From Candidatus Nomurabacteria bacterium (lineage in GTDB: Bacteria; Patescibacteriota; Minisyncoccia; Phycocordibacterales; UBA9973): a stretch of DNA of 64,000 nt. Location: positions 16,428 to 80,427 of the forward strand of contig JAPLXU010000013.1 of NCBI GenBank assembly GCA_026395915.1, read 5' to 3'. Numbering within the stretch: the stretch's first letter is position 1; each line of letters starts with the position of its first letter. Made by a program: the position numbers and the translations under genes. Of the stretch, positions 10,378 through 46,269 are shown in pieces. The notes below the pieces were generated by a model. The model was not told where the DNA came from. It saw only the letters and a program-made list of their open reading frames with translations, and searched no databases.

Positions 10378-11088
10378 ATGAGCACCGAAAATAAAAAAGG
10401 CACAGAGCATCCGCTTTCTATTGTTATAAACGAAGCAGTAAAGATCTTTACTGATTTGGGTTTTGAAGTTGCCAGCGGTCCAGAGCTCGAAGATGTTTGG
10501 CATAATTTCGATGCCTTGAATGTTCCCAAAGATCATCCAGCGCGTGATATGCAGGACACTTTTTACATCAAAGGAGAAGATGGAAAAGTTTTGAGAACTC
10601 ACACCTCGAATGTGCAGATTAGATATATGGAAAACTTTGTGAAGTCCAACAGGAAACCACCGTTTGCGGTCATTTCAGTTGGTAAATGTTTTCGCAATGA
10701 GGCAACCGACGCGACTCATGAGATGCAATTCTATCAGATCGAGGGGTTGATGGTTGGAGAAGATATTTCGATGGCAAATTTGAAAGGAGTGTTATCTCAT
10801 TTTTATAAAAAAATGCTTGGCGAGGACACGAATCTTCGTTTTCGTCCGAGTTTCTTCCCATTTACTGAGCCCTCGATAGAATTTGATTTGAAATATAAAG
10901 GAAAATGGATTGAGATGGGCGGGGCGGGCATGGTGCATCCGAAAGTTTTGGAAAATTGCGGGATTGATTCAAAAAAATACCAAGGTTTTGCTTTCGGTCC
11001 GGGACTCGAGAGGCTCATGGTTATAAAATACGTAATGCCGGACATCAGACCGGCTTATCAAGGCGACTTAAGGTTTAATCAGTTTTAA
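10378..11088 (+). CDS. pheS: Phenylalanyl-tRNA synthetase alpha subunit (N-terminally short)
   Basis: HPARDMQDTF, LRTHTS, RPSFFPFTEPS, GFAFGPGLERL. Confidence 0.95.
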   Translation: MSTENKKGTEHPLSIVINEAVKIFTDLGFEVASGPELEDVWHNFDALNVPKDHPARDMQDTFYIKGEDGKVLRTHTSNVQIRYMENFVKSNRKPPFAVISVGKCFRNEATDATHEMQFYQIEGLMVGEDISMANLKGVLSHFYKKMLGEDTNLRFRPSFFPFTEPSIEFDLKYKGKWIEMGGAGMVHPKVLENCGIDSKKYQGFAFGPGLERLMVIKYVMPDIRPAYQGDLRFNQF

Positions 11089-11091
11089 TTT

Positions 11092-11484
11092 ATGGAATAT
11101 GTGAAAGATTTTGATGCATGGAATACAAAGAAAAAAATAATTGATCAAAAAGAAACGTCTGATCATGTATTTTTTGCTGAACGTGAAATCTGGTGGGGCT
11201 CGTTAGGATTAAACATTGGATATGAACAAGACGGAAAGAATGAAAATTTTGAGCGTCCTTTGCTTTTGATAAAAAAATTCAATAGAGATATTGTTTTAGC
11301 AGTTCCATTAACAAGTGTTGCAAAGAATAATAAGTTTCATCATAAGTTGAAATCAAGCGGTTCTTTTGTCATACTTTCGCAGATGAGACTTATTAGCACG
11401 AAAAGATTACTTCGTAGAGTGGAGAAAATAACAGATTCGGAATTTGAAGAAATTATTAGTAAAATTAAGAGTTTGTTCCCATAA
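11092..11484 (+). CDS. PemK/MazF-like endoribonuclease toxin (orphan)
   Basis: EREIWWGSLGLNIGYEQDGK..FERPLL, AVPLTS, ILSQMRLISTKRL; paralog at 45648. Confidence 0.8.
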   Translation: MEYVKDFDAWNTKKKIIDQKETSDHVFFAEREIWWGSLGLNIGYEQDGKNENFERPLLLIKKFNRDIVLAVPLTSVAKNNKFHHKLKSSGSFVILSQMRLISTKRLLRRVEKITDSEFEEIISKIKSLFP

Positions 11485-11536
11485 AAGCGAAACCCCGCTT
11501 TCGCGGGGAATCTCGGGGGCCTAACGACCATTTACC
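11485..11536 (-). ncRNA. Candidate small structured RNA, copy 1, convergent on the MazF-like gene
   Basis: Minus strand GTAAATG-hairpin-CCCGAGA-hairpin-TTTCG, downstream of a sigma70-like promoter; two related copies near 46.0-46.2 kb. Confidence 0.6.
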
Positions 11537-11541
11537 TAAGT

Positions 11542-11570
11542 AGTGTATACTAGACGAAAGGTAAAGTCAA
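11542..11570 (-). promoter_or_regulatory. Sigma70-like promoter of sRNA copy 1
   Basis: TTGACT-17 nt-TACACT on the minus strand. Confidence 0.6.
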
Positions 11571-11607: not shown

Positions 11608-11886
11608 ATGGAACTCGAATTAATAGTAATTATTGGATTTATAACGACAGTTTTAACTATCTTGGTAAAAATTGTTGGTTTTCCAGACCAAATAAAGAAA
11701 AATTATCAAAGAAAATCCACTGAAGGAATTTCTACGGCTTTTTATGTACTTTCTTTTATAACATATATTTTTTGGACTATACATGGAATTTTGCAAAATG
11801 ATTGGGTAGTATATTTTGGTCAAGGTCTGGGAATACTAACTACTGGTATCATTGTATTTCAAATATTCTTTTATCATAAAAAATAA
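11608..11886 (+). CDS. SemiSWEET/PQ-loop family small transporter
   Basis: 92 aa, three TM segments, FPDQIKKNY.RKSTEGIS and WTIHGIL motifs. Confidence 0.75.
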   Translation: MELELIVIIGFITTVLTILVKIVGFPDQIKKNYQRKSTEGISTAFYVLSFITYIFWTIHGILQNDWVVYFGQGLGILTTGIIVFQIFFYHKK

Positions 11887-11895
11887 TTTTTTGAC

Positions 11896-13716
11896 ATGAA
11901 AATTTCTTACAATTGGCTCAAATCATATATACCAGAAGCTCCCACGCCTGAAAAACTCGCAGAAGTTTTTACTTTTCATATTTGTGAAGTCGAAAGCTTT
12001 GATAGATTACCAAATGGCGACGTTGTTTTTGATTTGAAAATATTGCCGAACCGCGCGCATGATTTGCTTTCTCACCAAGGCATTGCTCGAGAACTTGCTT
12101 CGCTTCTTGATATAAAATTCGTTGATCCGACGGCAAAATATAAAATTCCAAAATCAAAACCGACAAAACTAAAAATAGAAATAAAAAGCAATAAGTGTCG
12201 CCGTTATATAGGCAGAATTATTAGGGGAATAAAAATTGGTCCATCTCCAGAATGGGTAGTAAAACATTTAGAATCCATAGGCCAGAGAAGTATAAATAAT
12301 ATAGTTGATGCCGCAAATCTCGTAATGTTTGATTGTGGTCAACCGACGCATGCTTTCGATTTGGATAAAATACCGGAAGAAAAAATCATTGTAAAGAATG
12401 CTACGGATTTAGAAAATGCTTCCATTACAATGGAAACTCTTGATGGAAAAGTTTGCAAACTGTCGAAAAACGATCTGGTCATAGCTTCTGTCAGCAATAC
12501 ATTAGCTATAGCAGGAATTAAGGGTGGTAAAAAAGCAGAGGTTCATAATGAAACCACAAATATAATTCTCGAATGCGCCAATTTCGATCCTGTGAGTGTT
12601 AGAAAAACTGCGCAAGCCTTGAATATCATTACCGACGCAAAAAAGCGTTTTGAGAATGATTTATCTCCTGAATTAGCCGAGTACGGAATGATGGAACTCT
12701 CAGCGCTTATTTTTGAAATGTGTCCAGATGCGATTTTTGAAGATGTCATTGACGTTTATCCTAATAAGGCTGAACAGAGAAAAGTTTTTGTTTCAGTCGA
12801 TTATATCAACAAGCGTCTCGGCTCGGATTTTTCAAAAAAAGAAATTGAGAATGTTTGGAAAAAATTAAATTTTAAATATGTAGAGAAAAATGGAGAATTT
12901 GAAATCGTGATTCCGTTTTCGAGGATTGATATAAACGATCCATGCGATTTGACGGAGGATGTAATAAGCGTTTTGGGGTACGATAAAATCAAAGAAAAGT
13001 TGCCAGAAACAAAAACTAAATCAAAAATGAATGAAACCTTTGCCAAAATGCTTTGGGCTAGAAACAAACTGCTCGATGATGGATATAGTGAGGTGATGAC
13101 ATACGTTTTCAGAGACAATGGTGAATTGGAAGTATTGGCTTCTGCCTCGGATAAAAAATTTTTACGCACGAATTTAACTGATGGGCTCAAGGAAAGTATT
13201 AAATTGAATCAAACAAACGCGTCGCTTCTTGGAATTGACAAGGTTAGGGTTTTTGAGATCGGGACCATTTTCAAAAAGAAAGGCGAGGAGATGCATGTTA
13301 CGTACGGAGACAAAAAAAATGTTGCCGAAGTCTCTTTGGAAGATTTTTGTAAAGGGCAGATTTTGCAAGGACAGTCCTTAAGAGAGTTTCCCCAAGGACT
13401 GTCCTTGGAAAAATCTAAGGAAACTAAGTTCAAAATGTGGTCCCTGTTTCCCTTTATTGCGCGCGACGTAGCTGTTTGGGTTCCGGAAAATGTAAAAAGC
13501 ACTGAAGTCGCTCAAATAATAAAAGAAAACATGGGAGAAATGGTGGTCCGAGGTCCGGAACTTTTTGATGAATTCAAAAAAGATGGAAAAACTTCTTATG
13601 CTTTCAGATTGGTTTTCCAATCTTACGACAGGACTCTCACCGACGCCGAGGTGAATGAAATTATGACGAAAATAACTGATAAAATAAAAGAAAATGTAGG
13701 TTGGCAGGTGAGGTAG
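11896..13716 (+). CDS. pheT: Phenylalanyl-tRNA synthetase beta subunit
   Basis: MKISYNWL, PNRAHDLLSH.GIARE, GQPTHAFD, C-terminal FDX-ACB domain (RTLTDAEV). Confidence 0.95.
   Translation: MKISYNWLKSYIPEAPTPEKLAEVFTFHICEVESFDRLPNGDVVFDLKILPNRAHDLLSHQGIARELASLLDIKFVDPTAKYKIPKSKPTKLKIEIKSNKCRRYIGRIIRGIKIGPSPEWVVKHLESIGQRSINNIVDAANLVMFDCGQPTHAFDLDKIPEEKIIVKNATDLENASITMETLDGKVCKLSKNDLVIASVSNTLAIAGIKGGKKAEVHNETTNIILECANFDPVSVRKTAQALNIITDAKKRFENDLSPELAEYGMMELSALIFEMCPDAIFEDVIDVYPNKAEQRKVFVSVDYINKRLGSDFSKKEIENVWKKLNFKYVEKNGEFEIVIPFSRIDINDPCDLTEDVISVLGYDKIKEKLPETKTKSKMNETFAKMLWARNKLLDDGYSEVMTYVFRDNGELEVLASASDKKFLRTNLTDGLKESIKLNQTNASLLGIDKVRVFEIGTIFKKKGEEMHVTYGDKKNVAEVSLEDFCKGQILQGQSLREFPQGLSLEKSKETKFKMWSLFPFIARDVAVWVPENVKSTEVAQIIKENMGEMVVRGPELFDEFKKDGKTSYAFRLVFQSYDRTLTDAEVNEIMTKITDKIKENVGWQVR
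13358..13416. repeat. Inverted REP-like doublet inside pheT
   Basis: caaggacagtcctt (13366-13379) and its reverse complement aaggactgtccttg (13394-13407). Confidence 0.8.
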
Positions 13717-45647: not shown

Positions 45648-46127
45648 ATGCAAAAAGATTTTGATAAATGGAACACAGAGAAAAAAGCTGTAGATGCAAA
45701 AGTTGTAAATACAGAACTTTTCTTTCATGCTCGGGAAATTTGGTGGTGTAGCGCAGGATTAAATGTTGGAGTAGAAGCAGATGGAAAACACGAAAACTTT
45801 GAAAGGCCGATGCTAATTGTAAAAAAGTTTAATGCGGATATGGTATGGGCGCTTCCACTTACTACGCAAGGAAGAAAAAATAAGTATTATTATAAGTTGA
45901 ATCACGAAGAAGTAAAATCGTGGGTTGTTCTGTCACAAATAAAAACAATAAGCACAAAAAGATTTTTGCGAAAGGTAGGATCTATTTCTGAGTCAGATTT
46001 CAAGGAAGTAATTTTGAGGTTGCAAAAGTTGCTAAAAATCGAAAACCCCCTTACGGGGGCTTTCTCGGAGGCCGAAGCCACTAATACAAGAAGTATAAAC
46101 GGCAATCAAAACAAAGTCAAGCGATAG
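45648..46127 (+). CDS. PemK/MazF-like endoribonuclease toxin (orphan), paralog 2
   Basis: REIWWCSAGLNVGVEADGK..FERPML, ALPLTT, VLSQIKTISTKRF. Confidence 0.8.
   Translation: MQKDFDKWNTEKKAVDAKVVNTELFFHAREIWWCSAGLNVGVEADGKHENFERPMLIVKKFNADMVWALPLTTQGRKNKYYYKLNHEEVKSWVVLSQIKTISTKRFLRKVGSISESDFKEVILRLQKLLKIENPLTGAFSEAEATNTRSINGNQNKVKR
46036..46087 (-). ncRNA. Candidate small structured RNA, copy 2
   Basis: ggc-ttcg-gcc hairpin, TCCGAGA, ccccc-gtaa-ggggg, TTTCG; promoter TTGACT-17-TATACT at 46120-46092. Confidence 0.6.
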
Positions 46128-46183
46128 ACGAAACCCCCTTTCGGGGGTTTCTCGGGGTCTCCGACAAGGGAGACATTTACAAC
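46127..46183 (-). ncRNA. Candidate small structured RNA, copy 3
   Basis: GTAAAT-gtctcc-cttgtc-ggagac-CCCGAGA-ccccc-gaaa-ggggg-TTTCG; promoter TTGACA-16-TATACT at 46214-46187. Confidence 0.6.
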
Positions 46184-46269
46184 GTAAGTATATCAAATAC
46201 AAAAGACATGTCAAGTAAAAAATCAACCTTAATTTACAAGCTTATTATTAAAAATTTAACCAAAATAAT

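Follow-up and report, generated by a model that had tools for sequence, protein, structure and literature searches.

Behind an orphan gene for a MazF/PemK-family predicted endoribonuclease in Candidatus Nomurabacteria lies a sigma-70-type promoter that faces the gene and a short structured RNA predicted to start from it, and the same cassette was missing from only one of 149 homologous toxin loci. The predicted RNA is a structured RNA family that is absent from Rfam, undescribed, widespread and tied to orphan MazF genes; a literature search, with most subscription papers beyond its reach, returned no account of the RNA motif or of the Patescibacteria family. The pattern of conservation makes it very probable that the facing RNA serves as the antitoxin by one route or another, and a probability of roughly 0.55 is given to the reading that it acts by binding the toxin protein in a type III-like manner.

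The locus, its toxin and its predicted RNA

The window (the whole stretch of DNA analysed, 64,000 nt) belongs to an 812-kb genome with 38.7% G+C and an estimated completeness of 95.65%, for which the nearest homologues bearing a name come from Candidatus Nomurabacteria. The toxin gene sits within the phenylalanyl-tRNA synthetase genes, in the following order.

10378..11088, plus strand: pheS, the upstream flank (Pfam PF01409, E 9e-93)
11092..11484, plus strand: PemK/MazF-family predicted endoribonuclease gene, 130 aa (PF02452, E 6e-11)
11608..11886, plus strand: SemiSWEET/PQ-loop membrane protein gene (PF04193, PF03083)
11896..13716, plus strand: pheT, the downstream flank (PF03483, PF03484, PF03147)

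As the original prediction had it, the toxin gene starts 3 nt past pheS, whose stop is at 11088, and this gap leaves no room for the upstream MazE-like gene that it had declared absent. Comparison of 30 pheS loci of the genus found the pheT start no more than 38 nt from the pheS stop in 25, so the toxin gene occupies the usual start position of pheT in an essential operon. A toxin gene was found between pheS and pheT at three of the 30 loci (the window's genome included) and other genes at two; the toxin module inserts at gene junctions. The SemiSWEET-like transporter gene, also inserted between pheS and pheT, is a separate passenger and was not found after pheS at the 29 other genus loci. Searches for a protein antitoxin were negative: PF04014 was not found in the host genome (95.65% complete), no match to the MazE, PemI or ribbon-helix-helix families was found among 89 small flanking ORFs, one of which was an HTH_3 protein, and no family was common to the 38 small upstream ORFs.

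By sequence profile and fold the 130-aa protein is a member of the MazF/PemK ribonucleases, with activity and toxicity predicted. PemK_toxin was the sole Pfam family above cut-off (43 bits against 23.1), NCBIfam gave a weak MazF match only and PADLOC matched no family among three proteins searched. The predicted structure (pLDDT 91) matched MazF/Kid structures with Z 12-13.5 over residues about 26-130, the best being M. tuberculosis MazF-mt1 (Z 13.5, rmsd 1.5, 99 residues aligned), whereas CptN (Z 9.9), ToxN (Z 6.6 and 6.0) and AbiQ (Z 6.0) ranked below ten MazF/Kid chains. Residues 1-21 lie outside the MazF/Kid matches and the model has an extra N-terminal helix at residues 7-19, in which F/Y7, W10 and K14 are nearly invariant across the family. 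In a 66-row alignment W10, K14, E45, R55, Q97 and R105 were invariant and T/S74 was kept in 65 rows. In B. subtilis MazF the counterparts of R55 and T74 fall in the RP and AIT motifs, which supply the catalytic Arg and Thr/Ser.

The family is large: its profile reaches 2170 protein clusters when the E threshold is 1e-10 and 770 when it is 1e-30. Matches to the profile were found in 29 of 61 related genomes, a few of them weak, and the single toxin protein used as query matched in 31 of 301 genomes of the phylum. Viral sequences searched with the single protein yielded nothing, and with the toxin alignment 13 loci. The ESM Atlas also holds the toxin fold, N-terminal helix included, fused to an HTH domain (commonest in Bacillota) or to a cytidylyltransferase (commonest in Campylobacterota).

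On the opposite strand the cassette reads towards the toxin gene and ends at its stop codon.

11565..11570, minus strand: -35 hexamer TTGACT of the convergent promoter, from the sequence (TTGACA or TTGACT in 107 of 113 strict sites)
11542..11547, minus strand: -10 hexamer TACACT, from the sequence (commonest homologous form TATACT, 39 of 113)
11483..11535, minus strand: predicted small RNA of about 53 nt, start placed at +7 from the -10 box (model R2, 52.8 bits)
11530..11535, minus strand: unpaired 5' leader GUAAAU, from folding
11518..11529, minus strand: hairpin P1, 4 bp with a GUUA loop
11488..11517, minus strand: CC linker and hairpin P2, with two C-G/G-C pairs, an AG bulge, a long stem and a GAAA loop
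11482..11487, minus strand: U tail, terminator-like, overlapping the toxin stop codon

The predicted minus-strand TTGACT-17-TACACT past the toxin stop is indeed there (TTGACT at 11570-11565, 17 nt, TACACT at 11547-11542). The RNA quoted with it had the right elements and not quite the right letters, one G having been counted twice before the first hairpin and TT omitted before the second; the correct order on the minus strand is GTAAAT, the hairpin GGTC-GTTA-GGCC, CCCGAGATT, the hairpin CCCCGC-GAAA-GCGGGG, TTTCG and CTTTT. Leader variants elsewhere in the family include ACAAAU, AUUAGU, AUAAAU and ACAUUU, and the modal P1 has 3 bp and a UUCG loop. Taken singly the promoter site, with 9 of 12 promoter positions matched, was not above chance (16 such sites against 11.0 +/- 2.9 in shuffles), and the folding z of the single RNA was about -1.9. 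The significance of the cassette comes from comparison: the host genome has 212 strict promoter-like sites, only five of which then carry both hairpins at matching spacing, and four of these five lie behind the genome's three toxin genes. The same four cassettes were the top four matches of RNA model R1 in the genome. Contigs of three RNA runs from the same sample gave no match to the locus, a result that counts neither for nor against a transcript. In the comparison with Rfam that had been proposed as a check, neither the window locus nor 20 homologous and two plasmid loci had a match. The Rfam pemK motif RF02913 (61 model positions), likewise a short RNA motif and named for neighbouring PemK genes, differs in having no match at the window locus or in 22 homologous loci; its best match in the genome scored 18.4 bits against a cut-off of 34.8 and was on another contig.

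A second toxin gene with two cassettes lies elsewhere in the window, and a third with its own cassette is on another contig of the host genome (C2).

45648..46127, plus strand: second toxin gene, 159 aa, 53% identical, its tail running through cassette 2a
46034..46120, minus strand: cassette 2a, TTGACT-17-TATACT, RNA leader AUUAGU, inside the extended 3' end of the second gene
46123..46214, minus strand: cassette 2b, TTGACA-16-TATACT, RNA leader GUAAAU, past the stop of the second gene

The layout had been predicted to occur twice behind this second gene. There are two cassettes, but the nearer (-35 at 46120) is inside the gene's extended 3' end and only cassette 2b (-35 at 46214) is beyond the stop.

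Conservation of the facing cassette

The family was examined at 149 distinct homologous loci, after 13 duplicates and 7 truncated loci had been dropped. A strict convergent promoter, defined as TTGAC-16/18-YAnnnT facing the gene at 60-130 nt from the gene end, was found behind 113 of the 149 toxin genes, compared with 7 of 759 long ORFs of the host genome and 5 of 386 flanking ORFs as controls and 0 of 149 on the toxin's own strand. Of the other 36 loci, inspected by eye, 35 have the hairpins and a -10 box, their -35 being weaker; the one toxin without a cassette (locus L013) has Pro-Pro-Ser where the family usually has Pro-Leu-Thr. The motif thus does accompany the homologues, a point on which the original prediction had staked itself. 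A caveat that must be applied to these counts is that they measure linkage and not independent events, since each locus is a best hit and many of them are related to one another. By eye, no such cassette was seen at a distant homologue (28%) on a Lacticaseibacillus plasmid, and four weak-scoring PemK-like loci (L092-L095) had no convergent promoter and no model match at E below 0.2.

The promoter-anchored loci provide the fair test of structure. Information was low at +1 to +6 (0.12-0.34 bits) and rose to 0.87 at +7, which was A in 75% of loci, and a hairpin started at +12 to +14 in 101 of the 113 (shuffles: mean 20, maximum 33); the distance from the -10 box to P1 was 12 nt in 92 of 139 loci. 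On the minus strand 72 of 115 P1 loops and 79 of 109 P2 loops were of the GNRA or UNCG type, against 2 and 4 on the plus strand. This polarity of the tetraloops, as a sign read from sequence, marks the minus strand as the RNA strand and not a DNA or toxin-mRNA side. Closure of P2 by CG, which forms a CG-[AG]-CG bulge, was found in 84 of 86 RNAs with a YGAG linker. Plain RNA alignments lost the stem register, and the models were seeded from an 18-sequence structure-selected set, so that the compensatory changes counted in 8 of 11 P2 pairs of that set are partly circular. Leader classes tracked toxin clades (16 changes against 52 shuffled; FastTree, 98 labelled of 139 rows), an agreement that linkage by itself would give.

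A second RNA subtype has, after P2, an A-rich spacer and then a separate terminator hairpin. Since P2 is kept even there (L004, L006, L074, L076, L078, L079, L089 and genome contig C2), it is more than a terminator. Variation in copy number was also seen, with a single promoter-like site followed by two tandem RNA units (L011), two toxin-cassette modules in tandem (L023) and two decayed cassettes (L009).

A search of 60 related genomes with model R2, which misses the second RNA subtype in several genomes carrying it (e.g. L076, L078, L085, L089), gave 36 matches. Twenty-five abutted a toxin gene or fragment, seven were full cassettes without an intact toxin and four were weak. At two of the seven, toxin remnants were found by hand, comprising the first codons only (L202) or the last codons only (L203). 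The asymmetry between seven cassettes lacking an intact toxin in 60 genomes and one toxin in 149 lacking a cassette is what an antitoxin predicts, in that cassettes survive loss of the toxin and the reverse is nearly absent. Cassette 2b of the window (46123-46214) belongs to an RNA subtype with a long P1 that is found repeatedly, in several genomes, as cassettes without a toxin (L191, L202, L208), and such cassettes might guard against toxins elsewhere in the genome. At another locus (L032:1101-1152, minus strand) a decayed cassette without a -35 lies just upstream of an intact toxin. The end of the gene upstream of it, presumably rpoC, matches that of the gene upstream of the window's second toxin, and the site looks like an insertion hot spot.

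The four weak matches were rejected as cassettes and proved to be another RNA. This RNA-like element, short and conserved but distinct from the cassette, has a promoter-like site and a terminator hairpin, lies beside the RNase P RNA gene of four Nomurabacteria-like genomes (L198:1500-1580, L199:1500-1600, L210:1081-1167 and L211:1132-1259), and gave sub-threshold matches only in Rfam.

Transcripts in Campylobacterota and mode of action

The toxin family is also present in Campylobacter prophage CJIE4, on C. jejuni pVir and on Helicobacter and Nitratiruptor plasmids, and in each case examined a -10 box faced the gene and a hairpin lay at its stop. pVir0047 is 32% identical to the window toxin over 117 aa and scored 106 bits on the family profile. 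In C. jejuni RM1221 a primary antisense start has been mapped behind CJE1470, the toxin gene of prophage CJIE4 (step 74.4, enrichment 9.65), below the 220.66 of the toxin mRNA start (PMC3656092), and it falls exactly at the predicted promoter. The same study reported a Northern-confirmed 77-nt sRNA, CJpv3, on pVir, with a start step of 16164 against 28 for the pVir0047 mRNA (PMC3656092). CJpv3 faces pVir0047; its first base is at +7 relative to a -10 box, its end is 5 nt from the pVir0047 stop, and the antisense start behind CJE1470 is likewise at +7. The CJE1470 protein was detected in five of five isolates, and the prophage is described there as lacking MazE (PMC3995785). Transfer of these data to Patescibacteria is by position only, because model R2, run with filters off, had no match at CJpv3 or at ten other Campylobacterota-type loci; the Campylobacterota RNAs are also longer than those of Patescibacteria. 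Many large Campylobacter plasmids (matches H3-H31) carry a toxin homologue that aligns in three pieces and is apparently broken.

The original prediction had proposed a distinct arrangement in which a convergent downstream RNA is transcribed independently. An independently transcribed facing RNA agrees with the 149 loci and with the C. jejuni transcripts, but the arrangement is not without precedent, as an RNA antitoxin, cjrA, experimentally validated and placed in type I, is recorded for pVir of strain 81-176 (PMC7826846, PMC10470494). It is probable that cjpT is pVir0047 and cjrA is CJpv3, since of the 48 genes listed for pVir only pVir0047 is annotated as a toxin and CJpv3 faces it, and the pair thus probably belongs to the same family. 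The main text of T1TAdb does not name CjpT, CjrA, MazF or PemK, and cjrA is not mentioned in PMC5447181, PMC7048300, PMC8687705 or the supplement of PMC7826846.

In the mechanism that we favour, a small structured RNA transcribed from the facing promoter would bind the predicted MazF-type ribonuclease directly and keep it inactive. The toxin would be translated together with pheS, and the RNA would start at +7 with an unpaired 6-nt A/U-rich leader. This leader would occupy the substrate groove as a cleavage product does, offering the enzyme no bond to cut, and the extra N-terminal helix would be the docking site for P1 and for P2 with its AG bulge. Should transcription of the RNA stop, through loss of the cassette or phage shut-off, the RNA would decay and the nuclease would be freed, a release that is modelled on other toxin-antitoxin systems. 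The fixed length of the leader and the CG-[AG]-CG bulge favour protein binding because a cis-antisense RNA needs neither. The added basic and aromatic helix of the toxin was counted on the same side; type III toxins are homologous to MazF and have gained residues that bind RNA (PMC7781912). The leaders moreover resemble the MazF sites ACA, UACA and UACAU and the ToxN site AAAU (PMC7781912).

The RNA could instead act as a type I antisense RNA that forms a duplex with the toxin mRNA at its 3' end and so brings about cleavage by RNase III, although this is rather unlikely. Bacillus txpA/RatA is known to work in this way. The convergent cis layout, the lack of any terminator-like site on the plus strand behind the toxin gene and the RNase III encoded in the host genome all suit it, and by position the RNA is fully complementary to the 3' region of the toxin mRNA if that mRNA reads on to pheT. 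At 22 of the 149 loci the toxin frame continues into the cassette region for over 30 nt, and the upstream repeats that define ToxI are absent from the window locus. The published label of cjrA as a type I antisense antitoxin (PMC7826846, PMC10470494) and the large excess of sRNA on pVir (PMC3656092) point the same way. Yet a duplex at the 3' end leaves a start codon coupled to pheS exposed, RNase III would sever the pheS-pheT message as well, C. jejuni lysogens contain detectable toxin protein while they grow (PMC3995785) and antisense pairing leaves the fixed leader, the AG bulge and the loop polarity unexplained. Protein binding and antisense action may coexist.

Two further explanations were considered. 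In the first, the cassette would be no more than a terminator or insulator whose promoter arose by chance, and the protein would be a mild nuclease that requires no antidote; the terminator-like P2 and U tail and the failure of the single site to exceed chance would fit this. It is highly improbable, however, given that the U tail is on the minus strand (a U-rich tail was parsed, crudely, on the RNA strand in 92 of 139 loci and on the toxin strand in 4) and so would not stop the toxin mRNA, that P1 and promoter are kept at fixed spacing, that the C. jejuni homologues have primary transcripts (PMC3656092) and that the catalytic residues are kept. The second, also very unlikely, takes the short transcript as a leaderless mRNA encoding a peptide antitoxin, or the cassette as a DNA mobility signal. 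Of 118 parsed RNAs, 100 have a leader whose last three letters are ATG, GTG or TTG, in the window locus a minus-strand frame of 63 codons opens at that point and the module's habit of inserting at gene junctions would suit a mobility signal, but the frame is not kept relative to the conserved linker (45, 24 and 17 in the three frames), 18 of the 118 have no start triplet and a stop occurs within 18 codons in only 36 of 118. The strand polarity of the RNA-type tetraloops argues against both the peptide and the mobility signal.

Relation to known systems and significance

The window system is kin to cjrA/cjpT by toxin and layout, probably, and not by RNA motif. Both have a homologous toxin and a facing sRNA that ends at the toxin stop, a likeness that depends on cjpT being pVir0047; CJpv3 has 77 nt and another fold and does not match the Patescibacteria RNA model, and the C. 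jejuni pair is plasmid-borne with its own mRNA promoter, whereas the window gene is chromosomal and inside pheS-pheT. The name cjpT and a plasmid-curing result for cjrA/cjpT are said to come from Shen et al. in 2016. In citing papers the pair is labelled type I (PMC7826846, PMC10470494).

With definitions taken from PMC5367252, the window system lies outside type II MazEF and outside ToxIN, CptIN and AbiQ. It shares toxin family, fold and catalytic residues with type II MazEF/PemIK, but has no antitoxin gene and has an added N-terminal helix and a facing RNA cassette. With type III ToxIN, CptIN and AbiQ/antiQ it shares the pairing of a MazF-fold ribonuclease with an RNA partner, and type III antitoxins likewise have an A-rich unpaired segment that resembles a cleavage site (PMC7781912). 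It departs from them in a protein nearer to MazF/Kid and in an RNA that is single-copy, downstream, on the opposite strand and with its own promoter, pheS being what lies upstream of the toxin. ToxI-type antitoxins are upstream same-strand repeats with pseudoknots (PMC7781912). The one pseudoknot pairing tested here, that of the UUCG loop with CYGAG, did not covary, as 44 of 83 such linkers go with other loops. A non-repeat, cis-encoded structured RNA also binds and inhibits a ribonuclease toxin in AbiF/AbiFr, but AbiF is a HEPN protein of unrelated fold (PMC12737573).

The idea of an RNA antitoxin for such toxins therefore probably has a precedent; what is new is the large Patescibacteria family, the RNA motif and the signs, read from sequence, of RNA-protein binding rather than antisense action alone. 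We see an even chance that the system is a new type III architecture, in which a canonical MazF has given up MazE in favour of a 55-nt RNA that is encoded on the opposite strand, has its own promoter and mimics a cleavage product with its 5' end, spread through Patescibacteria and on Campylobacterota mobile elements, with cjrA/cjpT as its misclassified first member.

The RNA family, absent from Rfam, comes from a group with few described RNAs, and the choice between type I and type III is directly testable with a 480-bp cassette in E. coli. If the type III-like reading is true, cjrA/cjpT would be a model for how MazF-fold toxins acquire RNA antitoxins, and the family would link MazE-controlled MazF with the RNA-controlled ToxN and CptN toxins. 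In Patescibacteria and Campylobacter, solitary genes annotated as 'type II PemK/MazF' would be explained as systems under RNA control.
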